A stretch of DNA of 64,000 nucleotides from an uncultured Verrucomicrobiota bacterium (lineage in GTDB: Bacteria; Verrucomicrobiota; Verrucomicrobiia; Limisphaerales; AAA164-E04). Numbering within the stretch: position 1 is the first letter of the stretch; every line of letters starts with the position of its first letter. The stretch covers positions 12,838-76,837 of the forward strand of contig CAYPZD010000008.1 in the NCBI GenBank assembly GCA_964415055.1, written 5' to 3'. Below are positions 22,874 to 64,000 of this stretch, piece by piece. The notes under the pieces are model-generated. The model was not told the origin of the DNA. It saw nothing but the letters and a program-made list of their open reading frames with translations, and searched no databases. A program made the position numbers and the translations under genes.

Positions 22874-22889
22874 TGGCATTGATATTGCT
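22874..22889 (+). promoter_or_regulatory. candidate sigma-54 (-24/-12) promoter
   Basis: TGGCAT-TGATA-TTGCT. GG (22875-76) and GC (22887-88) have the canonical spacing, and the only mismatch to TGGCAC-N5-TTGC is one base. It sits in the spacer upstream of the VTC gene. The predicted TSS is near 22900. Confidence 0.55.
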
Positions 22890-22970
22890 TATTTTCATCG
22901 CGTTCATTATGCCGATCATAAGTTAAGAGCGGTTCGGGCAATGCCTTGCAGGGGAGATGACCGGCAACGT

Positions 22971-23000
22971 CCACCCGGATCCTGGCGTGGTTTTTCTTAT
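22971..23000 (+). terminator. terminator-like hairpin plus T-tract inside the leader of the VTC operon (possible attenuator)
   Basis: CCACCCGGATCCTGGCGTGG folds into about 7 pairs with one bulge and is followed directly by TTTTTCTTAT. It lies about 70-100 nt downstream of the predicted sigma-54 start and about 100 nt upstream of ATG 23097. Confidence 0.35.
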
Positions 23001-23096
23001 TGAAATGTGTTACAGTTGAGTGACAATGTTTTGAGGGAGCGGACGCCACAAGAGCGTCTGCCCGGAGGAAGCGTAGGGATTATCGCCAACAAGAAA

Positions 23097-23987
23097 ATGG
23101 GACAAAGGAAACTACAACAGCAAAGACACGAACTCAAATACGTAATACCTGAGCGGCATGCTCTGGCGATACGGGATTTCGTACGCTGTTATCTGGACCT
23201 GGATCCCAACGGAGCCGACGAGCCTGATTTAGCCTACCCGGTGCACAGTCTTTACATGGACTCCCCCGACATGGCTCTCTACCGCAGTACCATCAATGGC
23301 GATAAAAACCGTTTTAAATTGCGTGTTCGCTTCTATAACGAGAGTGAAGATACGCCTGTTTTTCTCGAGATTAAGCGACGGATGAATAACATTATCAGCA
23401 AAAAACGAGTAGGAATACCTCGCTCCAGCATGCCTACGGTATTAACGGGCCAGATACCTGACGTTAGCTACCTTTACAATCAATCCCCGAATTTGAATGG
23501 ATCCTCCCTGGCTGATGCCGGCATAGCAAGCAAAGAACAGGCTCTCATAGAATATGTCGACATGGTCAATCGTTTGGAAGCACAACCAGTCTCCCACGTT
23601 GCATACAGAAGGGAAGCATGGGTGCAACCCGACAGCAACAAAGTAAGGGTCACCATGGACAGGCAGGTCCGATGCGAAACAGATCCGGACGGCCGATTGA
23701 TGACTGCCATGCAAAACCCCACCTATGTATTTGGTGATTGGGTGATTCTTGAGTTGAAATTTACCGATCGTTTCCCGAACTGGTTCAGAGAGTTGGTGGA
23801 AGTGTTTAACCTGACTCAATGCGGAGCCGCAAAATATGTCGATGGGGTGACCCTAATGGGGGAAGACCAGACATCGGAGCTTGTTACCGCACACTTGGAG
23901 GCTCATCAAACCACACAATCAGCTTCCGACAATGGAAAACGAGACCACTTAAAGCGTCGAGAACAGGCTATAGCCGCCACTTTCTAA
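23097..23987 (+). CDS. VTC-domain (polyphosphate polymerase-type, triphosphate-tunnel) protein
   Basis: MGQRKLQQQRHELKYVIPE..., YPVHSLYMDSPD, RFKLRVRFY and VFLEIKRR match the bacterial VTC-domain family as I remember it. The listed ORF starts at GTG 23007; ATG 23097 is preferred. Confidence 0.75.
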   Translation: MGQRKLQQQRHELKYVIPERHALAIRDFVRCYLDLDPNGADEPDLAYPVHSLYMDSPDMALYRSTINGDKNRFKLRVRFYNESEDTPVFLEIKRRMNNIISKKRVGIPRSSMPTVLTGQIPDVSYLYNQSPNLNGSSLADAGIASKEQALIEYVDMVNRLEAQPVSHVAYRREAWVQPDSNKVRVTMDRQVRCETDPDGRLMTAMQNPTYVFGDWVILELKFTDRFPNWFRELVEVFNLTQCGAAKYVDGVTLMGEDQTSELVTAHLEAHQTTQSASDNGKRDHLKRREQAIAATF

Positions 23988-23992
23988 CACAC

Positions 23993-24676
23993 ATGGATTG
24001 GTTTCTTAACGCGGATTTCTCCACGGCACCAACGCCGTTGCATCTTACCCTTCTGGGGCTTTTGCTATCGTTCTTGTGCGGCCATGTCATTGCCTGGGTT
24101 TACATGCTGACGCACACCGGGTTATCTTACTCCCGCACATTTGTCCAGTCACTGATGATCATGCCGGTCATTGTGGCTTTGGTGATGATGGTACTTTCCA
24201 ATAATATCGTCTATGCTTTCGGACTGATGGCAGTGTTTGCCATTGTTCGATTCCGCAACATTCTCAGGGACACGCTCGACACGACTTATATTCTGGGAGT
24301 GATCGTCATCGGAATGGCCTGCGGGACCTACAAATTCCTCACGGGAACCATTGGCTGTCTGCTGATCGCCGCCATTTTAATGTATGTCTGGCTAACCGGA
24401 TTCGGCAGCCGGCAGCGTTATGACATGATTTTAAACCTGCATTGGGCGCGGGATTTGAACCATTTGGCAGAATTGGAAATCATCCTCCGCAATCACGCCC
24501 TGCGGTCTGTTTGTGCCAGCCAACGTTCACATCAGAATCTTTCCGGAACAGATCTCTCCTATCGATTGCTCTTGCGAAATCCATCTAAAATGCAGGTATT
24601 GCTGGAGGAGATAAAATCTCTGGAAGGAGTCTCTCGCGTCACCGGATTAAGAGCTGAGGAGGAATCCGAAATATGA
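23993..24676 (+). CDS. DUF4956 family integral membrane protein
   Basis: ATG 23993 lies 6 nt after the VTC stop. It has 4-5 TM segments and the family-typical block FAIVRFRNILRDTLDTTYILGVIVIGMACG, followed by a soluble C-terminal domain. Confidence 0.7.
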   Translation: MDWFLNADFSTAPTPLHLTLLGLLLSFLCGHVIAWVYMLTHTGLSYSRTFVQSLMIMPVIVALVMMVLSNNIVYAFGLMAVFAIVRFRNILRDTLDTTYILGVIVIGMACGTYKFLTGTIGCLLIAAILMYVWLTGFGSRQRYDMILNLHWARDLNHLAELEIILRNHALRSVCASQRSHQNLSGTDLSYRLLLRNPSKMQVLLEEIKSLEGVSRVTGLRAEEESEI

Positions 24677-25809
24677 GTCAAAACAACCTCAAACCTATCG
24701 CCGTTCCTGCCTGGAAACGGTGGCTGGAGTTTCGGCATCGCGTTTTGCCATCCATCATGTTTGTAGTGGTTTTGTTTTTGGTGGGGATTCTTTGGAAATC
24801 ACATCTGTCCAGTCCGTCGCTCATAGGTCAGGTGCAAGTCATGCGTTTGGACATTCGAACTCCTTCCTCTGGCACCATCACCAACCTGTCCGTGGAACTG
24901 TTTCAAAAGGTTCGTAAAGGAGACACGATCGCAAAACTGGATCCAGGAGATCCCCTCACAGCCCTCGGCTCTCAAGCACAATTACTGTTGGCAAAGAAAG
25001 AGCTGCTCCAGTTGATGAACCTTACCACTGCGGCCAATGCATTCGATATTCAACGCAATGTACTGGACAAGGAACGGTTAAGAACCGAGTTACTCCAGCA
25101 AAAAGTCAATCTCGCTTCCGCTGAAATCACACTGCAGAACCTCGAAAACGAATGGAACCGCGCCAAGGGCTTGTTTGAAGAGAAACTGCTCTCGGAAAGC
25201 GCATACGATCAGGCTGAAAAATCCTTCCTTGCAGCCAAAGCGGAAGTAAATGCCCGCAACAACTTGATCGAAGATTTGGGAAAAACCATTCAAGGCATTG
25301 AATCACTGATCGAAGGTAGCCGTGAAATTGAAGAAGCGAAATTGGAAATCGACCGTACGACGCTTCAAAGATCCATCGCCAAATTGGAACAGGAATGGAT
25401 CATCCGGGCCCCCAAGGATGGCGTCATTACTTCCATCCAAAAACGAGCGGGCGAAATGGTCGGATCATCCGACTCCATTGCAACCCTCACCCAATCCGGA
25501 ACTCGAACCATCATCGCCTATCTGCCTCAAGGTTCTGAAATCCCAATTTCAGAGGGACAAGAGGTTGAGATCAAAACACGCTCCCAGTTTGTGCGATACT
25601 GCACGGCGAAAGTGAGCAAAGTAGGCGAGAGCTATGAGTCCATGCCGGATCAACTTTCTCAATTGCAACTTTTCAAAGTGGGCGGCTTCGGTATCCCTAT
25701 CTTGATTGATCTCCCGGATGAGTTTAAATGTCTGCCAGGCGAGCTCGTCAACATCACGTTCAATAGTCAACCAGGACATTCTGAAACTGGAGCCTTGGCA
25801 GAACGCTGA
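24673..25809 (+). CDS. HlyD-family membrane fusion (periplasmic adaptor) protein
   Basis: ATGA overlap with the DUF4956 stop. It has an N-terminal TM, a lipoyl-like half (SGTITNLSVELFQKVRKGDTIAKLD), a long coiled-coil hairpin, a second lipoyl half (IIRAPKDGVITSI) and a beta-barrel tail. Confidence 0.75.
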   Translation: MSQNNLKPIAVPAWKRWLEFRHRVLPSIMFVVVLFLVGILWKSHLSSPSLIGQVQVMRLDIRTPSSGTITNLSVELFQKVRKGDTIAKLDPGDPLTALGSQAQLLLAKKELLQLMNLTTAANAFDIQRNVLDKERLRTELLQQKVNLASAEITLQNLENEWNRAKGLFEEKLLSESAYDQAEKSFLAAKAEVNARNNLIEDLGKTIQGIESLIEGSREIEEAKLEIDRTTLQRSIAKLEQEWIIRAPKDGVITSIQKRAGEMVGSSDSIATLTQSGTRTIIAYLPQGSEIPISEGQEVEIKTRSQFVRYCTAKVSKVGESYESMPDQLSQLQLFKVGGFGIPILIDLPDEFKCLPGELVNITFNSQPGHSETGALAER

Positions 25810-25830: not shown

Positions 25831-26445
25831 ATGGCACGCATCAAAGCGCTACCAACCGAGCATTCATCCCGTTATTATCCGGGCAACTACTTCGCACCCA
25901 TGGACTGGGAACAGGTATTTGATAACACGGCCCCGGTGGAAATCGAACTCGGAGCTGGCGATGGATCTTTCCTGCTAAATTATGCCGAACAATACCCAAA
26001 ATTGAATCTTCTCGGCATCGAACGTCTTTTGGGGCGCATTCGAAAGATTGACCGAAATGCTTTCAAGGCAAACATCACAAACCTGCGCCTCCTCAGAATT
26101 GAAGCCGGTTACTTTTTGGAATACCTCCCGGTCAACCATTCGGTGCAAGCCATCCATGTTTACTTTCCGGACCCCTGGCCGAAGAAGCGCCACCACAAAA
26201 ACAGGCTGATCAATTCAACATTCGTAGACCAATGCAAACGTGTTTTGACACCTTCAGGTCACGTATACCTCAGAACGGATCATGTGGAATATTTTGAGCA
26301 AATAGTGTCTGTCTTTGGCGATTCTTCTGATTTCGAACACCTCGAAACCCCTGAACAGCTCAAATCCATCAAAACGGATTTCGAAGCTGAATTCAATCAG
26401 CAGGGAATCCAGACTCAATATGCGACTTTTCGGGTGACAGCCTAA
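25831..26445 (+). CDS. trmB: tRNA (guanine46-N7)-methyltransferase
   Basis: Blocks VEIELGAGDGSFLL, GIERL and YFPDPWPKKRHHKNRL. Confidence 0.9.
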   Translation: MARIKALPTEHSSRYYPGNYFAPMDWEQVFDNTAPVEIELGAGDGSFLLNYAEQYPKLNLLGIERLLGRIRKIDRNAFKANITNLRLLRIEAGYFLEYLPVNHSVQAIHVYFPDPWPKKRHHKNRLINSTFVDQCKRVLTPSGHVYLRTDHVEYFEQIVSVFGDSSDFEHLETPEQLKSIKTDFEAEFNQQGIQTQYATFRVTA

Positions 26446-27898: not shown

Positions 27899-28146
27899 TA
27901 ACCGAATGCTCACGCACACATAACACTGAGGTGAAAAATCAGCGGCACCTGCAACCTGAGACATCTTGGCAAATTCTTGTAAAACACCTCACACATCATT
28001 TACGGCCATTTTTCTGCGTCAATCCACCCAAATTTGCGGATGACCAAGAGCCTGGTCTTCCTTAAACAGCGGCCGAGAATTAATACGAACGAATCGTTGC
28101 ATCGAACGGTCTGATTTTGCATGCTTGTCCCCGAAGATATTTTCCC

Positions 28147-29670
28147 ATGGAATACGAATTGGTCACCCAGGAAGACGTATTTCACTCGATGGAATCCGCC
28201 AAATCGATCGGTCGCAAGGCCTATGACGAACTCGTCACGCATCTGAGGGCGGATCTCCTCGAGGCCCAACGTGCACTGGAAGAGACTTCTCAATCGGTGA
28301 TCATCACCATCGGTGGAGTGGATGGAGCGGGTAAAGGTGAAGTCATCCAAATCCTCAACGAATGGTTGGATCCCCGAGGCCTTGATACGCACAGTTTTTG
28401 GGACATGGCCGCCAACGCCACCGATCGCCCTTACCAGTGGCGATATTGGCAAGCTCTCCCCAGACGAGGCCGCATTTGTATTTGGTTCGGAGGGATGTAT
28501 ACGGATCCCATCGACAAATACGTCCATGAACGGCGCCAGCCGGAATGGGCCGAAGAAATCAGCCGGGAGATTCGGTCCTTTGAGAATATGCTGCGCCAGG
28601 ATGGGACGGTCCAGATTAAGATATGGCTGCACCTGACCAAAGGCGCTCAGCACCGCCGTCTGAAAGATCTTTACGAAAATCCCCAGGAACATTGGCGGGC
28701 CATGCATGATGACTGGAAGCATCATAACCTTTATGAGCACTTTTCAGAAGCCGCCGAACAATTGATACTGCGCACCAATTGCAAGGAATCTCCCTGGCAT
28801 GTCATTGATGCGTCGATCAAGGAATGGAGAAATGTCACAGTCGGAAGACTCCTGCATGAATCCATGTTGAAAGCCATCAAACTCCAGAAACAATCATCAA
28901 ACAAAAAGAAACCCGCGGTAAAACACACCAAAGTCGAGCACGATTATCTCGCTGAAGTGGATCTGAGCCAGCGGCTGGATCCAGAAGTCTATGAGCAGGC
29001 ATTAGTCACCTGGCAAGGACGGTTGCACCGACTCTTCTGGGAAGCCTACGATCGCAACATCTCCACCGTACTCACCTTCGAAGGCTGGGATGCGGCCGGC
29101 AAAGGAAGCGCCATCAAACGCGTCACGGCTGCCATCGATGCCCGACTTTACCGCATCGTTTGTGTCGGCGCACCCACACAAGAAGAAAACCGTTATCATT
29201 ATTTGTGGCGGTTCTGGGATCCGCTGCCTCGAGCGGGACGCATCACCATATTCGACCGCTCCTGGTATGGCCGGGTGCTCGTTGAACGCGTGGAGAAGTT
29301 TGCCAAGGAACATGAATGGGCGCGCGCTTATGAGGAAATCAATGAGTTCGAACAACTCATGACAAGCCATGGTACCGTCATTTGCAAATTCTGGCTGCAT
29401 ATCAGCAAGGAAAAGCAGATGGACCGCTTCAAGAAACGCCTGAAAGTCCCCTACAAACGACACAAAATAACGGACGAAGACTGGCGTAACCGGGAAAAAT
29501 GGTCCCAATATGAAACGGCTGTCAACGATATGATCGGGTTAACAAACACGCCTCATGCTCCCTGGACCATTGTTGCCGGGAATAGCAAAAAATTTGCACG
29601 TATTCAAATTCTACAATCAATTTGCAAACAATTGGAACAAGCACTAGGGAATTCAGGTGATCAAACCTGA
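28147..29670 (+). CDS. two-domain PPK2 family enzyme (polyphosphate:AMP phosphotransferase-like)
   Basis: Two tandem PPK2 modules, each with a Walker-A-like loop (GGVDGAGKGEV and EGWDAAGKGSAI) and a lid block (YQWRYW / YLWRFW). ATG 28147 (MEYELV) is preferred over 28117. Confidence 0.85.
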   Translation: MEYELVTQEDVFHSMESAKSIGRKAYDELVTHLRADLLEAQRALEETSQSVIITIGGVDGAGKGEVIQILNEWLDPRGLDTHSFWDMAANATDRPYQWRYWQALPRRGRICIWFGGMYTDPIDKYVHERRQPEWAEEISREIRSFENMLRQDGTVQIKIWLHLTKGAQHRRLKDLYENPQEHWRAMHDDWKHHNLYEHFSEAAEQLILRTNCKESPWHVIDASIKEWRNVTVGRLLHESMLKAIKLQKQSSNKKKPAVKHTKVEHDYLAEVDLSQRLDPEVYEQALVTWQGRLHRLFWEAYDRNISTVLTFEGWDAAGKGSAIKRVTAAIDARLYRIVCVGAPTQEENRYHYLWRFWDPLPRAGRITIFDRSWYGRVLVERVEKFAKEHEWARAYEEINEFEQLMTSHGTVICKFWLHISKEKQMDRFKKRLKVPYKRHKITDEDWRNREKWSQYETAVNDMIGLTNTPHAPWTIVAGNSKKFARIQILQSICKQLEQALGNSGDQT

Positions 29671-31176: not shown

Positions 31177-32961
31177 TCATTTTAAAGGCCAAAGCAAAGG
31201 GATAACAATGGATGCCACCACCCATATCAACAGATTCAGAGGCAATCCTACCCGGATAAAATCCCTGAACTGATACCCCCCCGCACCGTAAACCAACGCG
31301 TTGGTTTGATATCCAATAGGGGACGCAAAACAAGCGGAAGCCCCGATCGCAACCGCGATCAAAAAAGGTTTGGTTGCCAGGTCCAGATGATGGGCCATCT
31401 CCAATACAATCGGAGTCATGATCACTGCAACTGCGTTGTTAGACAGAAAAGTGGTCAGCAACGAGGTCAGCAAAATGATTCCCGACAATAAAACCACTGG
31501 GTGACTTCCCCCCATAGCTGAAATCAGATGACTTGCCAGCCAATCGATGCCGGAGGTCTTTTCCAATGCTGTTCCCAAACCAAGCATCCCGAAAATCAAA
31601 AACAAAATACGCCAATCCACAGCTCGATAGGCTTCGTCCATCTCCAAACAACCGGTCACCACCATCACCAATGCTGCCCCCATCCCCAAGGCCGCAATGG
31701 GCATTGAAGTCAACGTGGCCGCAATCACCATGGCTATGATGACACCCGCGGCAATCCATTGTTTACTTTTACGTGGAACGGTCCTGGGGGCATCAGAGAG
31801 CACAATCACATCACGGGAATCTCTAAGTCGACGCATGGAGTTCTCCGTTCCCTCCAATAGAAGCGTATCACCATATTGCAGGATCGTGGATTCAAATTGA
31901 TTGCGTAGATTGACCCCGTGCCGATGAACGGCCAGCACCAACACGCCGAACAATCTTCGTAAATCACCCTGGCGTATAGATTTCCCTATCAACGACGATC
32001 GGGGGCTGATCACACACTCAACGACAGCCGCTTTCTGTGTCCCCACCCATTCGAGTCCCATCTGGCCTTCTCCTTTGAGAATTTCCAAACCGGACAGGTT
32101 TTTCAACTCCATCACCGAAGAAAAAACAGTGCTCAATCTCACTCGATCGCCCGCTTGAAACTCCACTTGATCCAATGGAACCCCAATCAACTCGTCGCCC
32201 CGTATGACCTCCAGAATACGGGCCTTGGGAATGGACTTGAGCGATGTTTCCACCAGTTTCTTACCAACCAGAGGAGAATCCGGAACAATAATGGCTTCAG
32301 TAAAGAATTGTTTACTCTCGGTCGTTTGAAGGATGGTGGACAAAGTCTCGCGGTCGGGGAGCAATTTCCGTCCGATGGTCCACAGATATCCCAATCCAAT
32401 CACCGTTAAGATGAGAGCCACTCCGGTCAAATCAAACATCCCGAGAGCTTTTTCCCCCAGACTATGACCTGTCGAACTTACCAGGATGTTGGTCGAGGTT
32501 CCTATCAAGGTACAGCAACCACCCAGTATGGAAGCAAAGGACAGAGGTATTAACAGTTTCGATGGTTTGATTCCGCGTCGCGAAACGATACCAATCACCA
32601 TGGGCATAAACACCAGAACAACGGGCGTATTATTAATAAAGGCAGATAGAAACGCTACCATGGGAAGCAAAGTCAAACTGACAGAAAGCTCCGATTTTCC
32701 CACGATTTTGTTCATCCAGCCCCCTACCCGGTCGATGGCGCCAGTGCGCTCGAGTGCGGAGCTCAGTACGAACATCGAAGCAACCGCAATGACCGCTTCG
32801 TTGCTGAACACCTTGAATAATTCTTCGGGCGTCAACAAACCGGCAAACACCAGCAGCACCATAGCCGCCACTGAAATGACATCGGAACGCCACCGCTCCC
32901 AAACCATGGCCACGAAAACAACACCCACCAGGGTGAATACGATGATCATGTCAGTTGTCAT
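31177..32961 (-). CDS. SLC13/DASS-type anion permease with two central TrkA-C domains
   Basis: 594 aa. Multi-TM N- and C-terminal halves flank two soluble repeats (PDSPLVGKKLVETSL... and SPRSSLIGKSIRQGDL...). Confidence 0.8.
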   Translation of the reverse strand: MTTDMIIVFTLVGVVFVAMVWERWRSDVISVAAMVLLVFAGLLTPEELFKVFSNEAVIAVASMFVLSSALERTGAIDRVGGWMNKIVGKSELSVSLTLLPMVAFLSAFINNTPVVLVFMPMVIGIVSRRGIKPSKLLIPLSFASILGGCCTLIGTSTNILVSSTGHSLGEKALGMFDLTGVALILTVIGLGYLWTIGRKLLPDRETLSTILQTTESKQFFTEAIIVPDSPLVGKKLVETSLKSIPKARILEVIRGDELIGVPLDQVEFQAGDRVRLSTVFSSVMELKNLSGLEILKGEGQMGLEWVGTQKAAVVECVISPRSSLIGKSIRQGDLRRLFGVLVLAVHRHGVNLRNQFESTILQYGDTLLLEGTENSMRRLRDSRDVIVLSDAPRTVPRKSKQWIAAGVIIAMVIAATLTSMPIAALGMGAALVMVVTGCLEMDEAYRAVDWRILFLIFGMLGLGTALEKTSGIDWLASHLISAMGGSHPVVLLSGIILLTSLLTTFLSNNAVAVIMTPIVLEMAHHLDLATKPFLIAVAIGASACFASPIGYQTNALVYGAGGYQFRDFIRVGLPLNLLIWVVASIVIPLLWPLK

Positions 32962-45724: not shown

Positions 45725-48157
45725 CTAATAGTATTTGAATTGCACGGAGACAATCGCTTCTTTATCGCACCGGGCCCTCACCCAATAGGCGCTGTATCCC
45801 TGCAGGAAACGGTGGTGTAAATTCTTGCCACCCGTGGTTTGGAAGGTTTCATAGGGCAACCACACTCCTGTCCCATCCACGTCCACTTCCAGGCTGACGT
45901 TCGCATCGCGGTCTGACCAGATTTTGAGTTGTTTATGGTCATACCCGGTCATCAGATAAGGATCGGACGGTTCACCGGGCTTGACCTCAGTTTCCATCCA
46001 CGGTCCACCCTGACCACGTGGTTTTCCCAATCGCCACAAATCATCCACCACGCCCGCCCAAACAGCAGCTTTCCCATCCTCACTGCGAAATATACGGTCG
46101 CTTTCGGTGGAATCATCCATGCCGGTGAAAAACAGCAAACCGTTGTGCGAGCAAAAATCATGGATACGCAGCTGATGAGTGGCGATGGGACGCATCTTCG
46201 CCAGCCCCTGGGCATTGCGCGCAGGAAGTTCGTAGAACGTTCCGTGAATATTCAACAAATCCCGTTCAGTGGCTACCTCACGACAAACTCGAGCCAGGGA
46301 AAATCCGCTTTTATTCGATGCATCTCCATAAGCATCCATCCTTGGCAGTCGATATCGCTTTCCATCTTCTTCGATCACGATGGAAGCGTTATCGACAGAG
46401 TATGCTTTCGCGGGCTGGCTCACGTCGGAGACCAGTTGATGCATGGCAGCCGGATCGTCGACGGGTTTCAACTCCATACTCGATGTCAGAGCGTAAAAAC
46501 CGGCATCATCACCCGAAGCATTGGACGAAGCCACAACCCCCAATCGATCATGCGCAAGACTTCGCATCAAACCGTAGCTCTTGGCTTGAACTTCGCCAGA
46601 AGCCACGCCATCAAATATCGCGTCATTCCTGGTGCGACGGGTGTCTTTGTTTCGATACTGAAAGTGGGCAGTGACATCCTTGGCATCCGACAGGGTTCTT
46701 ACTCGAATCCATGTCCCGGCTTCATCGGCACTAAAAAGATAAGAATGGTTTCCCTTGGGCCCAATGGTCCATGTATGAATCCTGGTCCATTGGTCATTCC
46801 CTTTCTGATCTGCTTCCAACTCCACCGTGATCTCTTCGTCAGACTGATGTTGCAGATGGATCTGCCGATAATCGTATCCTGAAAACAGATACGGATCGCT
46901 CACCTGCCCTGCCTTCACATCATCACGCAACCAAACCGAACCCCGGCCAATTGCCGGTCCCAAATGATCCAATCTTTCGGGCTCGACACACCATAGATTG
47001 GAATTGGATTGCTTGGGTGATCCATGAGCAGCCTTGAACGAGCGTTTGTTCAGGAATTCGGCACGTGCCGAATCATCGCAACCCATCACCACACGATCGC
47101 CCCACCGACAAAAATCACCCACCACTTTCAGGTAATTGGATCTCGGGGCAATTCCCGAAGATTGATGCCTGGAGAATGCTTTTGGAAACTTCCAGAACGT
47201 TCCATGCATCGTAGCCAGCAAATCTTCCTCGCCAATTTCCCGAATCCTTGGCCATTCGGTATTCCACCCGTGCGAACCATCGTAACTATGGCTTCCTTTC
47301 GGCAGGCGATAAAAGGTCCACTCCTGATCTTCCAGCAATCCCAATATCAGCGAGCGGGCATCCCACCCAAAAGTCCAAATCGGATCTTTATCGGGGTGTT
47401 GGTTTCCATGAATACCACCCGGCCCAGTCACTTCACAAAATTGATTGCGCCGAATCATCTGCCAATCCCCTCCCCCTGTCCAGCGAGCCAGGGATCCGGA
47501 TGCGATGGTCGGATCACGACCGACGTCCGGATGACGTTCTCCGTTATTGGCATAAATCAACTGCCCCTGACCGGAATACATCCCTTTGCCATGGTATCCG
47601 GGCAATTTCGAGACCAAGCCCACAGCCGGCGCTCCGGAATTGCCGTCCCGAATGAAACAGCTTACATCCAAGGTTCTCAAATCCACTTCATATAATCCCT
47701 CCTCCATGGTTGCATAATACACCTTGTGCTCGGGATCGCTCAGATGACGTGCGTTGGCGGTCAATCGACCGAACATTTTATCCGGGGAAATGACACGAAT
47801 TTCACCCTGCGCGTTGATGACATAAGGACCGATCAGCAAGTGTTGGGATTCAGAATGAATCATTCGGTTCGCCGGGGTTCCTCCGACACTGCCCTTGAAA
47901 ATGATTTGGTCCAGGTCAGGCGTTATTTCGTAAAGTTTATCCGTCGAGCCACCCGGCTGATGCGGAGCATATGTAACGGCCCATAACCTGCCTTGCCAGG
48001 GTACCACTGCGCCTGTCCCGCACTCATTCTCATCGTTCCACATGGTCAGATGAGGGTAAATACCTGAAATTTGAATGGGATGCGGATCAGCTCCATACAA
48101 GTTCACCAGATAAAACTGAGAACAGATCAACCAGATACAGAACACACGAAAATTCAT
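45725..48157 (-). CDS. secreted 810-aa protein of unknown family with an internal duplication
   Basis: It has a signal peptide and its stop is 9 nt upstream of the sulfatase start. Two approximately 175-aa units can be aligned by eye (aa 318-501 and 638-810). I recognised no family. Confidence 0.8.
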   Translation of the reverse strand: MNFRVFCIWLICSQFYLVNLYGADPHPIQISGIYPHLTMWNDENECGTGAVVPWQGRLWAVTYAPHQPGGSTDKLYEITPDLDQIIFKGSVGGTPANRMIHSESQHLLIGPYVINAQGEIRVISPDKMFGRLTANARHLSDPEHKVYYATMEEGLYEVDLRTLDVSCFIRDGNSGAPAVGLVSKLPGYHGKGMYSGQGQLIYANNGERHPDVGRDPTIASGSLARWTGGGDWQMIRRNQFCEVTGPGGIHGNQHPDKDPIWTFGWDARSLILGLLEDQEWTFYRLPKGSHSYDGSHGWNTEWPRIREIGEEDLLATMHGTFWKFPKAFSRHQSSGIAPRSNYLKVVGDFCRWGDRVVMGCDDSARAEFLNKRSFKAAHGSPKQSNSNLWCVEPERLDHLGPAIGRGSVWLRDDVKAGQVSDPYLFSGYDYRQIHLQHQSDEEITVELEADQKGNDQWTRIHTWTIGPKGNHSYLFSADEAGTWIRVRTLSDAKDVTAHFQYRNKDTRRTRNDAIFDGVASGEVQAKSYGLMRSLAHDRLGVVASSNASGDDAGFYALTSSMELKPVDDPAAMHQLVSDVSQPAKAYSVDNASIVIEEDGKRYRLPRMDAYGDASNKSGFSLARVCREVATERDLLNIHGTFYELPARNAQGLAKMRPIATHQLRIHDFCSHNGLLFFTGMDDSTESDRIFRSEDGKAAVWAGVVDDLWRLGKPRGQGGPWMETEVKPGEPSDPYLMTGYDHKQLKIWSDRDANVSLEVDVDGTGVWLPYETFQTTGGKNLHHRFLQGYSAYWVRARCDKEAIVSVQFKYY

Positions 48158-52790: not shown

Positions 52791-53195
52791 ATGAAAACAA
52801 AAGCCACCACTCCTCCTCCCCGTCGATTGGGCGACCTTCAGTTGCGCATCATGAAAATACTATGGGAACAAGGTTCAGCTAGCGCAGGCGATGTGCGTAA
52901 AGCCTTGATCCCGGTAAAAGATCTCGCCTACACCACCGTGGCCACGATGCTTCGCAAGATGGAGGACAAGGGCTTGGTGACCCACACCACTCAGGATCGG
53001 ACTTATATCTACACACCACTCGTGAAAGAAGATTCTGTCTCAAAAAGCCTGGCAGGTGAACTCCTCGACAAACTGTTCGAAGGAAATCTCGCCGGCATGG
53101 TGAGTCACTTGCTCACTGCCAAGGATGTCAGTCACGAGGAACTCGAAGAACTGGAAGCATTGATCCAATCCAAAAAGAAAGAGGCCAAATCATGA
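52791..53195 (+). CDS. BlaI/MecI/CopY family transcriptional repressor
   Basis: 134 aa with the winged-helix blocks LQLRIMKILWEQGSASAGDV and AYTTVATMLRKMEDKGLV. ATGA overlap with the downstream M56 gene. Confidence 0.85.
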   Translation: MKTKATTPPPRRLGDLQLRIMKILWEQGSASAGDVRKALIPVKDLAYTTVATMLRKMEDKGLVTHTTQDRTYIYTPLVKEDSVSKSLAGELLDKLFEGNLAGMVSHLLTAKDVSHEELEELEALIQSKKKEAKS

Positions 53196-56100
53196 ACACC
53201 GATTTCCTAAGCCTGGCCCAGGAATCGGCCACTTTACTCGGTATCCATATTACCTGGATACTTTTGTTGACTTTGGGAGCATCCCGCTGGATCCACCACA
53301 TCATCCTCCAACGCACCCTCTGGCGCAGTACGTTCCTTGCAATATTGCTACTTTTGGGAAGCACATTCTCGGGCCTCTACCAATGGAACTGGATGTCCGG
53401 GGCCTCATTACATACCGTAGACCAGGCTTCCCAGTGGAAACCGATGCAACTGGTCTCGGATTCTATCGCGACAACTTCCATTCAACCAGAAGCACCTGTC
53501 ATCCAAATCCGAGATGCCAAAGCTCCTTCCGCTACGGCAACTACGACAACGGTATTTTTGCTGCAGATTTGGTTCCTCGGGATGGCAATCACTTCCGGTT
53601 TAATGATATTCAATGCCATGATCTGGCGCATTCGAATATTCCGCAAGGCATCACCCGCATCCTCCAATCTCCGATATCTTTTCAAGCAAGCGGCCAAATC
53701 ACTGAACTACCGTCGCATTCCACAATTGATCGAATCGCCCAGTATCAGGAGTCCTTTGGTGATGGGATGTTTCAGACCGGTGATCGCATTTCCAGTTGAT
53801 CATGCAAACCTTTACAACGCGGACGAGCAACACCTGATCATGTCGCATGAAATCGCACACCTGCGTGAAAAGGATGGATGGTGGCAATGCCTGGCCAATT
53901 TGGCCTGCATGGCGGCCTGGTGGCATCCCTTGGTATGGATCGCACGTCAACGTCTGCGTCAATGCGCAGAAGAAACTGCCGACAACCTCAGCACACACAA
54001 CACAACACACCGCGAACAACTGGCCTCCTGTCTGGTGCGCATCGGTCGAGAACTCAACGCCACGCGCTGCCCCGGTGCCCCATCGATTTTTGGAGCAGGT
54101 TTCCGCTCTCAACTTGGTAAACGCGTTGAACGGCTGATCCAACACGATCCTTCTTGGAACGAAAGACCGAAAGGAGTCCTCTGGATATCCCTTCGTCTTG
54201 CAGCGCCCCTTCTTCTCATCGGAGCGATGTTTTCTACCGCATCCTGGTTTGGGACTTATTCCGGATCTAACGCATCTGATTCAATTCGACACTCCGTTGT
54301 TGGGCTGATGCTGATGGCAGAAGAGGAAGGACCTCCTTATGAGTTTCCTGGTAAAGTAGAGGAAAGCTTAGCATCCGAGATTGAAGCAAGATTGAAAAAA
54401 ACGGTCATCCCAACATTTAAATACGATGAAGAAAACACTTATGAGAATTTAAAAAAACTGCGCAAAGCCATTTTGAGTGTCGAACCAACTTGGGAAAACT
54501 TGACCATTAACCTCAGATCTCCTTCGTTGGTGGGTTCTGTTGACACAAGCAAATCAGAAGACAAATCAAGTGATCCTGAAGGGATTAAAGCTGAACTAAG
54601 CACTCATATCATAGGCTACATTCAATTTGGCCCGGCTAAGGAAATTCCAAATCATATCCCTCCATATCAGCGATTGATAAAAGAATCAGATTTTCTAGGA
54701 ACGTCAAAAAGTAAAAATATAGAAAAGCCCCATACCCCAAAGATTACGGAACTAGCAAACGAAACTGCCTATGATTTGCTATTCAAAATCATGCAGCCCT
54801 ATCAAATAACAAACCATCATTACTTTGCAAAGGACATGGTGATATTTGATGTAGGTAAAATGATAACAGCGGGATACTACTCCAGCCAGGAAAATGAATC
54901 CCAAACATCTCCAACAACCTCACCCCAGTTTGAGGGACCTCCCGCACCAATCACAGCATCACCGTTAAACGCTGCTAAAGCAGAGGTGCCAGAATTCTAC
55001 ACAAGGGTCTACAAAACGAATCCACCATCTTTTCTGCAACGCATCATGGCCTTGTCTGGTTCATTAAACACGTCACAAAGTCCTGGTGACTCTGATATTC
55101 AAAAAACAGTTCACAAATTCATCTCCAATCTCGGCATAAAGAACATATCAGAAACTGCAGTTTCAAGTTCCGTAGGACCGGCGCACAACGATGCGTCCGC
55201 TTTGAGAACAATACAGGACGCCAAAGCCATTTTTTATAACGATCGAAACGGTAAACTCTTTACGCGACTCACACTCGAAGACCATGACAAACTCGAAGCA
55301 GCACTCGCTCTTCTTCAGGACCCTGCCGAACGGAATACCAAGATCGCTATGAACATGCATGTGGTGCAACTGAATGAAGCCGGCATCAAGACTTTGAAAG
55401 AGTTTGGATTTGATACCACCACTCAGGATTCCGGTCAGTTTGAACACACCATCGATACCCCCACTTTGGAACGATTACTGTTGCGAATGAACCTTGCGCC
55501 AGGTGTCGACATTCTCCAGTCCCCTCGAATCACCGCATTAAACGGGCGACAGTCCGAACTGAAAGCCCAGGAACTGAGACGCATCGTCACAACCAACGAA
55601 ACCGGCAACATTCAGACGGAGGAAATCGCAACCGGTCCGTCATTGAGTGTGATTCCAAAAATCCAGGCGGATGGCAAATTGCAGATAACAGCACACTTTG
55701 AGTTGCTGGAATTTCTTGGCTACGACGATCCAGGTTCCTTTCGCATCGTTACACAAAACAGTCATCAACAAAACAATGCTGACCTACCCAACAAGAAACC
55801 GTCATTCACCGGCAACTACCAGGAAATGTTGAAAGAAATGGACTTGGCCCCCAAACGCGAAATTCCAAATGTCATTCTGAAGTATATGCCCAGTCAACTG
55901 AAACTAAAGCAACTCAGCAACGAACTGGAAACCGCTCAACAAACCAAGGCTCAACTTGAAGCAAAGGTATCAAAGAACGCCAAAGACACCATCAACACTC
56001 AAAGAAACCTTGCCGCAGTAAAAGCCTTGATCCCGGCATTTCAAAAACAACTTGATCAAGAAGTCGCCAGCATCAGGCGCCATATCCTTGCACAAATGGA

Positions 56101-56416
56101 CAGTCAAAATTTTAACGGGAAAAGTGTTAACCCAACCGAATCAGGCATCATCACTGCGTCAACAAACGAGTCAGCAGAAAACACTCCTGTTCCGTTACCT
56201 AGATTCAATCGACTCAAATTGAACACCAATACATCCCTCCAATCAGGTCAAACACTGATCATGGGCGGCCTCAAATCAACCGAAACCGTCCAATGGAAAG
56301 ACAATGTACTCGTCATGAGTAAAATCCCACTCCTCGGAGGCATGTTTCGACGAGAAGGCACCAGCACCACGGAACAATACATCTACATCCTGATCACGCC
56401 AACAATCCTGGAGTAG
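53192..56416 (+). CDS. M56 (BlaR1-like) zinc-metalloprotease sensor fused to secretin N-like domains and a secretin C-terminal domain
   Basis: aa 1-355 have four TMs and the cytoplasmic HEXXH (SHEIAHLREKDGW, 53846-53860). aa 600-720 have FYTRVYK...AIFYNDRNGKLFTRLT, which is secretin-N-like. aa 760-840 and 1000-1074 carry the secretin signature (DILQSPRITALNGRQSE..., LPRFNRLKLNTNTSLQSGQTLIMGGL, SKIPLLGGMFRR...YILITPTILE). Confidence 0.8.
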   Translation: MNTDFLSLAQESATLLGIHITWILLLTLGASRWIHHIILQRTLWRSTFLAILLLLGSTFSGLYQWNWMSGASLHTVDQASQWKPMQLVSDSIATTSIQPEAPVIQIRDAKAPSATATTTTVFLLQIWFLGMAITSGLMIFNAMIWRIRIFRKASPASSNLRYLFKQAAKSLNYRRIPQLIESPSIRSPLVMGCFRPVIAFPVDHANLYNADEQHLIMSHEIAHLREKDGWWQCLANLACMAAWWHPLVWIARQRLRQCAEETADNLSTHNTTHREQLASCLVRIGRELNATRCPGAPSIFGAGFRSQLGKRVERLIQHDPSWNERPKGVLWISLRLAAPLLLIGAMFSTASWFGTYSGSNASDSIRHSVVGLMLMAEEEGPPYEFPGKVEESLASEIEARLKKTVIPTFKYDEENTYENLKKLRKAILSVEPTWENLTINLRSPSLVGSVDTSKSEDKSSDPEGIKAELSTHIIGYIQFGPAKEIPNHIPPYQRLIKESDFLGTSKSKNIEKPHTPKITELANETAYDLLFKIMQPYQITNHHYFAKDMVIFDVGKMITAGYYSSQENESQTSPTTSPQFEGPPAPITASPLNAAKAEVPEFYTRVYKTNPPSFLQRIMALSGSLNTSQSPGDSDIQKTVHKFISNLGIKNISETAVSSSVGPAHNDASALRTIQDAKAIFYNDRNGKLFTRLTLEDHDKLEAALALLQDPAERNTKIAMNMHVVQLNEAGIKTLKEFGFDTTTQDSGQFEHTIDTPTLERLLLRMNLAPGVDILQSPRITALNGRQSELKAQELRRIVTTNETGNIQTEEIATGPSLSVIPKIQADGKLQITAHFELLEFLGYDDPGSFRIVTQNSHQQNNADLPNKKPSFTGNYQEMLKEMDLAPKREIPNVILKYMPSQLKLKQLSNELETAQQTKAQLEAKVSKNAKDTINTQRNLAAVKALIPAFQKQLDQEVASIRRHILAQMDSQNFNGKSVNPTESGIITASTNESAENTPVPLPRFNRLKLNTNTSLQSGQTLIMGGLKSTETVQWKDNVLVMSKIPLLGGMFRREGTSTTEQYIYILITPTILE

Positions 56417-58238: not shown

Positions 58239-59735
58239 TCACACTTTCCCCTGCTTTCTCCAGCGATACAAGGTCGTTGGGTGAATCCCCAACTGCGCGG
58301 CAACCCATCCCAGATTGTTATCAGATTGGACCAGCAGGTCACGGGCAAGAGCCATTTTCTGTTTGGGAGAGAGAGCGGGTGTCGAGGGCCAACCGGTCAT
58401 TTGTTGATTGGGATACCCACCGGCTGCCTGCATGGGAGCTCCGCCAGCAGGCTGAGGAGCGTAGCCACCCGGTTGCCCCGGCATGGGCTGGAATCCTCTT
58501 TGTCCAGCGTCCCCTCCCGGCACATAATTTTCCTGCAGTTGTTGTCCGGGTATGCCACCGTTCATCGCTGCGGAAGCGTTCTGCGAACCTCCCTGCTCCG
58601 ATGCGGAAATAGGTTTTTCCCACCACGCAGCCCGCAAGACCGGGCCATCATGCAAGACCACCATGCGGTCGATCTGACTTTTCAGTTCACGCACATTACC
58701 AGGCCAATGATAAGCCTGAAATGCCTGCACCAGCTCAGGTTCAATCCCGTCGAAATGTTTCCCGAATCGCTCACTTGCCATGTCCAGGAAGAGTTTCACG
58801 AATTGCGGAACATCATCATTGTGCATGCGCAGAGGGGGAATCCTCAGTGTGATTTCGGAAAGACGGAAATAAAGGTCGGTACGAAAATTATGGCGTTCGG
58901 TTTCGTTGTCCAGATTTCGATTCGTCGCTGAGATCACGCGAACATCAATGGGATAATCTTCCGTCCCTCCGATTCGGCGCGCTTTTCGTGTTTCCAGAAA
59001 GCGCAGCAACTTGGGTTGGAGTCCCATGTCAAGCTCCCCGATCTCATCCAGAAACAAGGTTCCACCGTTGGCTTGCTCGACCAGACCTTTCCTGGCTTTC
59101 ACCGCGCCTGTGTAGGACCCCTTTTCGGCACCGAACAATTCGGCTTCGATCAAGTCTTTGGGAATGGCGGCACAATTGACCGCGACAAAAGGTTCACGTC
59201 CGCTGGATGCATGCAATGCCTGCGCAACGCGTTCCTTACCAACACCCGATTCACCCAGAATGAGAACGGTGGCATCGGTGGGGCCAAGCCGCTCGATACC
59301 TTGGCGCAGGTTCTGCATGGCGTAGGATTCACCTACCAATATGTCCTTGGATTCCAGCGTCTTTCCTCCGTATAGCTGAATCCACAGGTGTTGCGAATCG
59401 CATGCCTTTTGCAGAGCTTCCTTCCATCGTGCAACATCGTCTTCGAGATCCAGCACATCATAGGCACCGTCCCTCATGGAGTTGACTGTTTCCTGAGTGC
59501 CCATGTTGGAGCCAAACGCAATGTAGCAACGACTTGTCTGACTCAAACGCACACGAATGTGTGCCCATCGATCGTCTTGGGTACATTGGACAGGAATCAT
59601 GTACACGCTGTCATGCGTGTTATGGCTTAGTTCTTTGATCTGATCAGGTTCAAAAAACTGGCATCGATACCCCATGGAGGTGACCCAGGCTTCTGCCTTG
59701 CGGGACTCCGGGTGATTCAGGAGTTGAATAATCAT
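58239..59735 (-). CDS. sigma-54-dependent transcriptional activator (bEBP) with degenerate receiver domain
   Basis: AAA+ core with Walker A GESGVGKE, sigma-54 contact loop GSYTGA (GAFTGA variant), Walker B LFLDEIGE, and WPGNVREL. The C-terminal Fis-type HTH is AAQLGIHPTTLYRWRK. Confidence 0.85.
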   Translation of the reverse strand: MIIQLLNHPESRKAEAWVTSMGYRCQFFEPDQIKELSHNTHDSVYMIPVQCTQDDRWAHIRVRLSQTSRCYIAFGSNMGTQETVNSMRDGAYDVLDLEDDVARWKEALQKACDSQHLWIQLYGGKTLESKDILVGESYAMQNLRQGIERLGPTDATVLILGESGVGKERVAQALHASSGREPFVAVNCAAIPKDLIEAELFGAEKGSYTGAVKARKGLVEQANGGTLFLDEIGELDMGLQPKLLRFLETRKARRIGGTEDYPIDVRVISATNRNLDNETERHNFRTDLYFRLSEITLRIPPLRMHNDDVPQFVKLFLDMASERFGKHFDGIEPELVQAFQAYHWPGNVRELKSQIDRMVVLHDGPVLRAAWWEKPISASEQGGSQNASAAMNGGIPGQQLQENYVPGGDAGQRGFQPMPGQPGGYAPQPAGGAPMQAAGGYPNQQMTGWPSTPALSPKQKMALARDLLVQSDNNLGWVAAQLGIHPTTLYRWRKQGKV

Positions 59736-62488: not shown

Positions 62489-62956
62489 ATGCCAACTATG
62501 ACAAAAATCTTGTTCATTTGCACAGGAAACATCTGCCGAAGCCCTATGGCCGAAGGCTACCTTCGTCACTGGGCGAACAAAGCGGATCGTAAGGACATCG
62601 TAGTGGCCTCGGCTGGAGTGGGTGCCATGTCCGGGCAGGCTCCAAGCCAAAACTCCGTGCAAGCTCTCAATGAATGGGGAATCGACATCACGGCACAACG
62701 AAGCCAGATGGTTTCCGAGGAACTCATTCAACAGTCAGATTGGATTTTCGGAATGACGCAAGGCCATGTGGACGCCATCCGCGCCATCTTCCCGGACGCT
62801 TCCGAAAAAGTTTTATTACTTCGCCATTTCAACGAGGAACTACAGGGCTATGACAAGGAGATATCAGACCCCATTGGAGGAAGTCTGGAGATTTACAAAA
62901 CATGTCGAGATGAGATTAAACAAGGTATCGACCGTATGATTGAAGCCCTGCTTGAG
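62489..62956 (+). other. domain: low-molecular-weight protein phosphatase (YwlE/LMW-PTP family)
   Basis: The P-loop is [18 protein letters not shown] (C-X5-R-S) and the acid loop is ISDPIGGS. It is followed by the linker NTSSGSDQ. Confidence 0.85.
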
Positions 62957-64000
62957 AACACCTCATCCGGTTCGGACCAAACACTCACGATAGCCATTGG
63001 CTCCGATCACGCAGGATTTACAGCAAAAGAAGCCCTGAAAACCCATTTGGAATCAGCGACGAAACAAGTGGTCGACATGGGAACTCACAACGAGAATTCC
63101 ACCGATTACCCGGATTACGCCCAGGCGGTGGCGCAAAGCGTGGCTCAAGGGCAAAGTGATATTGGAGTGCTGGTTTGCTCGACCGGAGTCGGCATGTCCA
63201 TTGCAGCCAACAAAGTATCGGGTGTCCGTGCGGCCCTCGTACATGATGCCGAGACCGCCCGATTGGCCAGGGAACACAACCACGCAAACATTCTCTGCCT
63301 CGGTGCCAAAGGAAAAACCGAAGACGATTTATGGGCCAGTCTCCAGGCCTTTCTTGAAACAGAATGTGGAGGCGACCGACACCAGCGTCGTGTCCGAAAA
63401 ATTATAGCCATGGAACAAAAACAAAACCACTCGGTTGCAGCCGTGGATCCGGCCATCGCACAAATCATCGAAAAAGAACGCCAGCGTCAGCAGGAAAACA
63501 TTGAGCTGATCGCCAGTGAAAACTTCACCAGCCCCGCCGTTATGGAAGCCCAGGGTTCGGTTCTGACCAACAAATACGCGGAAGGATATCCCGGCAAACG
63601 CTGGTATGGCGGATGCGAATATGTCGACGAAGCCGAGCAACTGGCCATCGACCGTGCAAAACAGCTTTTTGGAGCCGAACATGCCAACGTCCAGCCACAC
63701 TCTGGTTCGGGCGCCAACATGGCGGTCTATTTTTCCACTCTCAAACCGGGTGACAAAATTCTCACCATGGATCTCAGCCACGGAGGCCACTTGACCCATG
63801 GCAACAAGGCCAATTTCTCCGGAAAGTTCTTCGAAGTCGTGCACTACGGCGTCCGAAAGGAAGATGAACGGATTGATTACGATCAATTGGAACAAATGGC
63901 CAAAGAACACCGGCCCAAAATGATCACTGTCGGGGCAAGCGCCTATCCCCGGATCATCGATTTCGAGCGCATGGCTGCCATCGCCAAAGAAGTGGAAGCT
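62489..64000 (+). CDS. continuous ORF: LMW phosphatase domain + ribose-5-phosphate isomerase B + serine hydroxymethyltransferase (3' end outside window)
   Basis: This ORF is not in the supplied track because it has no stop inside the window. I translated frame 2 by hand from ATG 62489 (or 62498) to nt 64000 and found no stop. The upstream in-frame stop is TAA 62468-62470. Domain boundaries are given in the three entries below. Confidence 0.85.
62981..63409 (+). other. rpiB: domain: ribose-5-phosphate isomerase B
   Basis: Blocks [50 protein letters not shown] and [12 protein letters not shown]. There is no stop codon before the next Met. Confidence 0.85.
63410..64000 (+). other. glyA: domain: serine hydroxymethyltransferase (N-terminal ~197 aa in window)
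   Basis: Blocks [55 protein letters not shown] and [10 protein letters not shown]. Confidence 0.9.

Follow-up and report, generated by a model that had tools for sequence, protein, structure and literature searches.

The window analyzed here, a stretch of 64,000 nucleotides (nt) from an uncultured Verrucomicrobiota bacterium (assembly GCA_964415055.1, contig CAYPZD010000008.1), contains an operon of three genes, all on the + strand (23097–25809), which encode, in this order, a VTC-domain protein, a DUF4956 membrane protein and a HlyD/EmrA-like adaptor (Table 1). The adjacency of these genes is not a matter of chance: of 80 species-representative genomes, 69 hold a complete copy of the triad. 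The reading that we prefer, with a confidence somewhat below even, is that the three gene products build a machine for inorganic polyphosphate (polyP) which spans the envelope: the VTC protein would synthesize the polymer, DUF4956 would let it pass through the inner membrane, and the adaptor would duct its secretion, each functional step being deduced rather than observed.

The layout of the operon was as compact as had been claimed in a preliminary description of this DNA, made from the sequence alone. The stop codon of the VTC gene (TAA, 23985–23987) is separated by 5 nt from the DUF4956 start codon (ATG, 23993), and the stop codon of the latter (ending at 24676) overlaps the start codon of the adaptor gene (ATG, 24673) in the tetranucleotide ATGA. 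The VTC reading frame (23007–23987) opens with GTG; because homologues of 296 amino acids (aa) begin at MGQ, the ATG at 23097 is favored as the start. The lack of a pump in the vicinity, noted in the same description, also held as far as the open reading frames (ORFs) were scanned: Pfam revealed no ABC, RND, MFS or OEP domain in 28 of the longer ORFs, beside which the window has about 17 that are shorter or unscanned, and the transporter closest to the triad is a CitMHS/TrkA-C permease (31177–32961).

A scan of one genome per species yielded 252 confirmed relatives of the VTC protein, and the best 80 of these 252 were read. They belong mostly to Verrucomicrobiota of several orders, and also to Balneolales, Omnitrophota and Methylomirabilota bins. 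The complete VTC–DUF4956–adaptor triad was present in 69 of the 80 loci, and in 2 further loci it was cut by a contig end. Only a 95-aa stub of the adaptor was left in one locus, the adaptor was absent from two, one locus had VTC only, and five were not assessable. The preliminary description had made its proposal depend on the co-conservation of the membrane-fusion protein with VTC and DUF4956 in other genomes, and the adaptor indeed accompanied the pair, standing after DUF4956 in 71/75 assessable species-level genomes with variable flanks. The median junctions were 5.5 nt (VTC/DUF4956) and 2 nt (DUF4956/adaptor), with 90–93% of the junctions lying within −10 to +25 nt. No further gene family occurred in more than 15 of the 80 loci and no pump family recurred; the recurrent flanking genes (TrmB, iron alcohol dehydrogenase, DUF1501, PSCyt, CLC channel, FIST) followed clades. 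As no pump was found in the scanned ORFs of the window or recurring in related loci, DUF4956 is the sole conserved membrane partner. In lineages that have lost the adaptor, an ORF of 95–102 aa, corresponding to the N-terminal tail and transmembrane (TM) helix of the adaptor only, was observed right after DUF4956 (L004, 9541–9849; L005, 3024–3332; L084, 6644–6931). This ORF may be what is left of a decaying adaptor gene, or else a small membrane partner that has been retained.

Relatives of the system were also found on plasmids and in metagenomes. A plasmid of Hymenobacter volaticus (NZ_CP095062; L086, 5763–10744) carries genes for an adaptor-like protein, DUF4956, a TolC-family protein and a protein sorted by the type IX secretion system (T9SS). 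The adaptor-like protein (359 aa) matched the hidden Markov model (HMM) of triad adaptors at E 2e-10, and its TolC neighbor matched OEP at 5e-41. On a plasmid of Chondrinema litorale (NZ_CP111047; L087, 6905–9845), DUF4956 is followed, after a 2-nt gap, by a HlyD adaptor and then by a signal-peptide protein of 416 aa that could be assigned to no family. A metagenome scan with a three-sequence seed of this DUF4956 type gave 80 further loci, and VTC was placed directly upstream of DUF4956 in 58/63 of those that were assessable. The three closest relatives of the Hymenobacter DUF4956, all from Bacteroidota-type contigs, showed the order adaptor–VTC–DUF4956. Contig L093 (236–8638) encodes on one strand an adaptor, VTC, DUF4956, a GH3 glycosidase and CotH, with 1-nt gaps among the first three genes. 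The adaptor of this type aligned with the adaptor family of the window with an hhalign probability of 95% (E 4e-8), and the RLS motifs described below were aligned with each other. That a second phylum also links these three families, with another gene order, suggests that selection acts on the linkage itself.

The VTC protein has features that would be expected of a polymerase. Its domain assignment was borne out by the Pfam model PF09359 (E 6e-41; 141 bits, cut-off 23), with residues 9–254 covering profile positions 1–234 of 235, and a profile built from 16 VTC homologues matched Vtc4 structures at E 1e-7. The triphosphate ligands of yeast VTC are K200, R264, R266, K281, R361, K458, S457 and Y359, and E426 is the Mn ligand; all of these Vtc4 ligands are needed for a normal polyP content, their mutation lowering polyP, and K458 is the one residue that is swapped, for Ile or Leu, in the inactive Vtc2/Vtc3 (bioRxiv 10.1101/2023.01.27.525886). 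In HMMER alignments, with the numbering verified on the 5iiq chain, Vtc4 residues R264/R266, K281, K294, Y359, R361, R373, E426 and K458 mapped to R76/R78, K93, K102, Y170, R172, R184, E219 and K246 of the window protein, respectively. Hence the tunnel residues, whose absence the preliminary description had named as decisive, are in place (counterparts of R264, R266, K281, Y359, R361, E426 and K458 are kept), with Ala at the position of S457 as the one deviation. Moreover, R10, E12, K14, R76, R78, E91, K102, Y170, R172, R184, E219, K221 and K246 were invariant even when homologues of 22–27% identity were included, and K93 was nearly so. K14, in the N-terminal motif, lies at the position expected for K200 by the register of the Pfam profile only and is presumed to be its equivalent; HMMER gave no usable match aligning K14 with K200, either with a 95-aa fragment or with a 53-column profile. 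From the conserved catalytic residues, we infer that the VTC protein of the window is a Vtc4-like polyP polymerase. A motif in its C-terminal tail, HLKRRE, was considered as a marker of adaptor presence and dropped, as the tail type does not follow the adaptor.

The second protein was confirmed as a multi-pass DUF4956 protein, as first described: it matched PF16316 at E 1.2e-11 (45.1 bits, cut-off 30.6), and its AlphaFold2 model (pLDDT 78) contains five TM helices (16–40, 48–67, 70–91, 94–111 and 115–135). In this model, the C-terminal part forms a cytoplasmic beta-alpha-beta-beta-alpha-beta ACT-like domain, which was the only part matched by Foldseek, to folds of the ACT, NikR-C and S6 type. 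The positive-inside rule, with the sequence read against the model helices, suggests an N-out, C-in topology. The invariant block FGLMAVFAIVRFRNILRDTLDT would then be placed at the cytoplasmic turn between TM3 and TM4, judging by the model and the distribution of charges, and the I, R, F and R of its I-[IV]-R-F-R core were invariant in DUF4956 members down to 23–30% identity. The family is large (4829 cluster representatives at E ≤ 1e-3, with full-length matches), and complete members are typically of about 225–235 aa (among 150 members listed); two outliers of 595 and 342 aa carry DUF4956 only, with or without an SPFH fragment. No transporter-family signature was detected by sequence search of the Protein Data Bank (PDB), Foldseek or Pfam, and the sequence search of the PDB gave only insignificant matches to ND1. 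A relationship to MgtC was also considered. A homologue in Streptococcus intermedius was described as a TM protein with an ACT domain, assigned by CDD to the MgtC family (bioRxiv 10.1101/2024.04.20.589940). At the Pfam level this relationship found no support, the MgtC model giving faint, insignificant matches (E 1.6 at best, in 8/24 members).

The third protein is a membrane-fusion protein, as had been predicted, matching HlyD_3 (E 3e-13; 50.9 bits, cut-off 22.2) and HlyD_D23 (30.8 bits, cut-off 30). Among NCBIfam models, RND_mfp, MdtN and EmrA were the nearest, all scoring far below their curated cut-offs (EmrA, 66.7 vs. 390.8; MdtN, 72.4 vs. 376). The protein comprises an N-terminal cytoplasmic tail, one TM anchor, a lipoyl domain, an alpha-hairpin and a beta-barrel, with Biotin_lipoyl halves (61–90 and 243–272, Pfam) flanking the hairpin. 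AlphaFold2 modeled its globular domains poorly (mean pLDDT 63) and the hairpin confidently (about 90); helix 13–45 holds the TM anchor, and the hairpin helices 100–169 and 175–240, of 70 and 66 residues, reach about 100 Å. The best Foldseek matches, at E 4e-10, were EmrA of EmrAB–TolC (8zal, 8zar, 4tko) and MacA. At the hairpin turn, the sequence RAKGLFEEKLLS fits the RLS motif, which is the TolC-contact surface of MacA, AcrA and MexA and which plays the same role in HlyD as the variant RLT (PMC3391258). Among 71 triad adaptors, 94% share R163 of this motif, 96% share L167 and 86% share S174, and a short cytoplasmic N-terminal motif, P-I-A-x-P, was also strongly conserved, while the rest of the sequence was poorly conserved. 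A long hairpin without a membrane-proximal domain fits a partner that lacks periplasmic bulk, i.e., DUF4956. A word-index search for homologues of the adaptor found relatives of at least 59% identity and then of 24%, and was uninformative on the origin of the adaptor.

Table 1. Positions of the three genes, their conserved motifs and the upstream elements in the 64,000-nt window.
Feature	Position	Strand	Basis or remark
Sigma-54-type −24/−12 element, TGGCAT-N5-TTGCT, TGGCATTGATATTGCT	22874..22889	+	Sole exact TGGCAYN5TTGCW match in the window
Presumed 207-nt 5′ leader	22890..23096	+	Between the promoter element and the VTC ATG
VTC-domain protein, 296 aa; putative polyP polymerase, Vtc4-like triphosphate-tunnel	23097..23987	+	Pfam VTC; without SPX, without TM domain
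R-x-E-x-K-Y motif RHELKY (R10, E12, K14) at the VTC N-terminus	23124..23141	+	Translation; R10, E12 and K14 invariant
DUF4956 membrane protein, 227 aa; proposed inner-membrane translocon	23993..24676	+	Pfam DUF4956; AlphaFold2 model
Invariant block FGLMAVFAIVRFRNILRDTLDT at the predicted TM3/TM4 cytoplasmic turn, including the family-wide I-[IV]-R-F-R	24218..24283	+	Translation; invariant in 24 homologues
EmrA/HlyD-type periplasmic adaptor, 378 aa	24673..25809	+	Pfam HlyD_3 and HlyD_D23; AlphaFold2; Foldseek
RLS motif RxxxLxxxxxxS (R163, L167, S174), RAKGLFEEKLLS, residues 163–174, spanning the hairpin turn	25159..25194	+	Translation, exact fit

Taken together, these features suggest how the machine might work. 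On the cytoplasmic side of the inner membrane, the soluble Vtc4-like domain would use ATP to polymerize polyP, as its conserved catalytic residues suggest. An oligomer of DUF4956, each subunit contributing five TM helices and a cytoplasmic ACT-like domain, would form the inner-membrane passage, and the Arg-rich turn I-V-R-F-R-x3-R at the cytoplasmic end of TM3 would be its mouth, where positive charge could receive the chain. From its architecture and motif, the membrane-anchored EmrA-like adaptor may be expected to ring the exit and to cross the periplasm with its ~100 Å hairpin, and its RLS tip would dock to a TolC-family outer-membrane channel encoded elsewhere. Such unlinked tolC genes are the norm for EmrAB, AcrAB and MacAB. 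As a speculative last step, polyP would arrive at the cell surface or in the medium; many relatives also have a gene for a giant secreted CotH-family kinase next to the operon.

The linkage to CotH was observed in three groups of loci. In the genome set, proteins with a CotH domain (~600 to 2400 aa, with LTD, PKD, PATR, EF-hand or T9SS-tail domains) adjoin 12/80 triads. Among metagenome DUF4956 loci flanked by 3 kb or more on either side, 16/28 contained CotH, and the CotH protein of contig L093 (1191 aa) has LTD domains as well as a T9SS sorting tail. Two Bacillota plasmids of PLSDB carry CotH–VTC–DUF4956 or VTC–DUF4956–CotH in glycosyltransferase-rich loci, without the adaptor. The VTC/DUF4956(–CotH) accessory cassette has already been noticed in Gram-positive pel loci, with no function found, and the cluster gene lists of Streptococcus, Clostridia and Bifidobacteria contain no adaptor (bioRxiv 10.1101/768473; 10.1101/2024.04.20.589940). 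Judging by their domains, the CotH proteins beside triads are extracytoplasmic, at the surface or secreted. The CotH linkage recurs in loci of Bacillota, of Verrucomicrobia and of Bacteroidota type, which points to an extracytoplasmic use of the cassette product. A wider proposal, which we consider possible and distinctly more doubtful than the machine itself, is that of a previously unrecognized secretion system for an inorganic polymer, in which DUF4956 would be a new class of translocon, diderms would have recruited an EmrA-like adaptor and a TolC-type channel, and polyP would serve CotH kinases or the matrix. The exported polyP could act there as an extracellular phosphoryl donor or as an anionic scaffold, for instance for secreted CotH kinases or for the matrix.

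Several observations weigh against polyP secretion by the operon. The interior of the TolC duct is electronegative, which would be awkward for a polyanion unless counter-ions travel along, and the known members of the MgtC family are regulators, not channels. The TM domain of DUF4956 had no structural relative in the PDB by Foldseek, the monomer model showed no obvious charged pore, and natural fusions of VTC with DUF4956, or of DUF4956 with the adaptor, which were looked for, did not occur among the listed homologues. Four lineages (L004, L042, L075 and L084) have lost the adaptor and kept VTC–DUF4956, and no TolC-family gene was found within 10 kb of any Verrucomicrobial triad in a jackhmmer search of low sensitivity (a single Hymenobacter TolC seed). 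There is no VTC on the Hymenobacter or Chondrinema plasmid, despite the presence of DUF4956 and the adaptor. In the VTC protein, the position of S457 is occupied by Ala (A245) in the window and its clade, and by Ser in the eight more distant homologues aligned; the corresponding Ala mutant of Vtc4 lowers polyP in yeast (bioRxiv 10.1101/2023.01.27.525886). In the literature searched, no bacterial VTC-domain protein was shown to make polyP. In the sole published genetic test, S. intermedius showed no phenotype, under the conditions tried, after deletion of its VTC/DUF4956/CotH cassette, and the authors guessed that polyP remains cytoplasmic (bioRxiv 10.1101/2024.04.20.589940). The preliminary description had joined VTC and DUF4956 into a coupled polyP synthase/translocase with the adaptor as its conduit. 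The tunnel residues, the co-conservation, the RLS tip, the Bacteroidota-type arrangement, the Hymenobacter TolC and the adaptor-less Bacillota plasmids (two loci read) speak for this view, which thereby found partial support; an obligate coupling of VTC and DUF4956 is not established, because sets of DUF4956 and adaptor, with or without TolC, exist with no VTC on the replicon that carries them.

These VTC-less sets would also fit a new kind of tripartite efflux, in which DUF4956 and the adaptor export not polyP but, for example, an ion, phosphate or a small molecule; VTC would then be no polymerase but a regulatory or energizing module that binds or hydrolyzes NTP or triphosphate. Triphosphate-tunnel enzymes do include plain triphosphatases, and the Ala at the S457 position as well as the ACT-like domain, which suggests control by a small ligand, point in the same direction. 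However, VTC is found directly upstream of DUF4956 in 58/63 metagenome loci and in essentially all Verrucomicrobial loci, the counterpart of K458, which divides active Vtc4 from inactive Vtc2/3, is invariant, and DUF4956 lacks a detectable transporter-family signature. We regard such efflux as unlikely.

Somewhat less likely again is that polyP passes through DUF4956 and stays in the periplasm or envelope, the adaptor being a sheath or scaffold like Alg44, without an outer-membrane channel. Adaptor-like co-polymerases that scaffold the passage of a polymer are known, with Alg44 as an example, and the low-sensitivity search linked no outer-membrane factor (OMF) gene to Verrucomicrobial triads. 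Against this stands the conserved RLS tip, which is specifically a TolC-contact surface, as well as the TolC-family gene adjoining DUF4956 in Hymenobacter and the co-encoded CotH proteins, whose T9SS tails, PATR and LTD domains mark them as surface or secreted. Moreover, an unlinked tolC is normal for EmrAB, AcrAB and MacAB.

The view of the S. intermedius study, that polyP is cytoplasmic since the other VTC subunits are missing and that DUF4956 belongs with MgtC (bioRxiv 10.1101/2024.04.20.589940), would make DUF4956 an MgtC-like anchor or regulator with a metabolite-sensing ACT domain, and the role of the adaptor unrelated or stabilizing. In combining TM helices with an ACT-like domain, DUF4956 does match the architecture of MgtC, and matches to the MgtC Pfam model, however faint, exist (E 1.6 in 8/24 members). 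What remains unexplained in this way is the translational coupling of DUF4956, in 71/75 genomes, to a TM-anchored, periplasm-spanning adaptor whose OMF-binding tip is conserved, the recurrence of the set in another phylum with a different gene order, and the neighboring TolC gene and secreted CotH kinases; we hold cytoplasmic polyP to be improbable. Finally, mere inherited synteny or a hitch-hiking adaptor gene, without any functional unit, is contradicted by the present data and deserves hardly any credence: the loci are mostly from one phylum and shared ancestry inflates the counts, but the flanks differ among clades around an intact triad, junctions of 0–6 nt or 4-nt overlaps are maintained, and Bacteroidota-type contigs link these families too, in another order.

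The expression of the proposed polyP operon is probably sigma-54 dependent, to judge from the upstream sequence. The element TGGCATTGATATTGCT, 207 nt upstream of the VTC ATG, has GG at −24 and GC at −12, spaced as in TGGCAC-N5-TTGCW. A single match of this kind in the window is not significant alone, as at least one match occurred in 27/100 shuffles. When the 450 nt upstream of the VTC N-terminal motif were compared, an element with at least 9/11 consensus bases was present in 30/75 related loci vs. 1/75 in the reverse-complement control. As it rests on a motif, sigma-54 control of the operon is plausible. A gene for a sigma-54 activator (58239–59735, −; Sigma54_activat, 8e-64) lies 35 kb away, beside a B12-binding radical-SAM/DUF4080 gene, and encodes the sole enhancer-binding protein among the 28 scanned ORFs of the window. 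A riboswitch or structured leader was considered for the region between the element and the VTC gene and rejected: there was no noteworthy Rfam match, alifold gave no structure in 16 orthologous leaders, and the folding energy was ordinary (z-score −0.1). At the other end, no intrinsic terminator was found after the adaptor gene, and there is no terminator-like site between the adaptor stop codon and TrmB.

Upstream, the triad of the window is flanked by genes for a PSCyt/DUF1553 protein, DUF1501 and an iron alcohol dehydrogenase, and downstream by genes for TrmB, NamZ, a two-domain PPK2 and a ThiH-like radical-SAM protein. The gene for TrmB, a tRNA (m7G) methyltransferase (25831–26445, +), begins 21 nt past the adaptor stop codon. 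TrmB was found 3′ of the triad, adjacent or a few kb off, in 20/80 genome loci (22/86 of all loci including the window) and is probably a co-transcribed passenger. The PPK2 gene (28117–29670, +; Pfam 2.8e-123, two stretches) is located 2.3 kb 3′ of the triad, past TrmB and NamZ, and by this assignment the source organism also owns a conventional polyP-utilizing kinase near the operon. Of the other loci read, that of the closest genome (L006) alone showed the order triad–TrmB–NamZ–PPK2. A CotH gene was not found in the window.

Other neighbors were seen in related loci. In 12 marine-clade loci (L024–L039 and relatives), a convergent gene for a CLC chloride channel with a CBS domain meets the end of the adaptor gene about 1.8 kb past the VTC stop codon, and in 8 other loci a gene with a FIST sensor domain usually follows the adaptor on the same strand; both neighbors look clade-specific. 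Three further observations concern distant parts of the window. An ORF of 810 aa (45725–48157, −), beside two sulfatase genes, had no Pfam match at E ≤ 1e-4. An ORF of 1074 aa (53192–56416, +) has a BlaR1-type M56 peptidase/sensor domain at its N-terminus and a secretin domain at its C-terminus, which is an unusual pairing. At the end of the window, a low-molecular-weight phosphotyrosine phosphatase domain shares a single frame (62489–64000, +) with RpiB and with the start of serine hydroxymethyltransferase. This frame runs out of the window; it is either a three-domain fusion or a set of very tightly packed genes.

The VTC–DUF4956 pair is widespread yet uncharacterized. Several bacteria have been reported to have polyP at their surface or to secrete it. 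In the literature searched, bacterial polyP synthesis is credited to PPK1 and PPK2, and Vtc4 is called eukaryotic even in a 2026 paper; the same literature contained no description of the adaptor-containing triad, of a bacterial VTC enzyme activity or of a bacterial route of polyP export. The difference between the adaptor-bearing loci of diderms and the adaptor-less loci of Bacillota plasmids (two read) makes the label "polyphosphate polymerase domain protein" experimentally specific. If the proposed function is true, the operon would add a third polyP synthase to those of bacteria and a new class of inner-membrane partner to tripartite systems, and it would give extracellular CotH kinases a rationale. 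The triad joins a VTC-type polymerase cassette to the adaptor logic of tripartite pumps, and the chance that it is a new secretion system is realistic.

The triad resembles several known systems in part. DUF4956 resembles the MgtC family in size and in its architecture of TM helices plus an ACT-like domain, and differs from it in that the Pfam match is not significant and in that no pairing of MgtC with VTC, adaptors or TolC is known. As in the synthase-dependent secretion of exopolysaccharides, such as that of alginate by Alg8–Alg44–AlgK/E, a polymerase at the cytoplasmic face would act together with a passage through the inner membrane, a periplasmic protein resembling an adaptor and a pore in the outer membrane; in contrast to the alginate system, the polymer would be inorganic, and there is no glycosyltransferase, PilZ domain or TPR/beta-barrel porin. 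The Gram-positive VTC–DUF4956–CotH cassette of pel and exopolysaccharide loci has the same families adjacent on the same strand and shares the CotH link with 12/80 triad loci, whereas the window has the adaptor, which is missing from the Gram-positive loci read, and no CotH gene was found near the triad of the window. Unlike in EmrAB–TolC and MacAB–TolC, no MFS or ABC partner was found, and the sole conserved membrane partner is a protein of 227 aa without a transporter signature; as in those pumps, the adaptor of the window is TM-anchored, lacks a membrane-proximal domain and has a long hairpin with an RLS tip, and the OMF is probably unlinked. In contrast to the eukaryotic VTC complex (Vtc4/Vtc3 or Vtc2/Vtc1), the protein of the window has only the VTC domain in Pfam and no SPX, its catalytic domain is a separate soluble protein with Ala in place of S457, the membrane partner is DUF4956 with five TM helices and an ACT-like domain instead of a Vtc1-type protein with three, a periplasmic adaptor is added, and the proposed destination of polyP is the cell exterior instead of the vacuole lumen. 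Nevertheless, the two share the triphosphate-tunnel domain with counterparts of seven Vtc4 ligands and a dedicated membrane partner, and K14 is presumed, from its register, to correspond to K200. Just as the channel of yeast VTC has rings of Lys/Arg at its cytoplasmic vestibule (bioRxiv 10.1101/2023.01.27.525886), the DUF4956 protein of the window has a positive motif at the predicted cytoplasmic face of the membrane.

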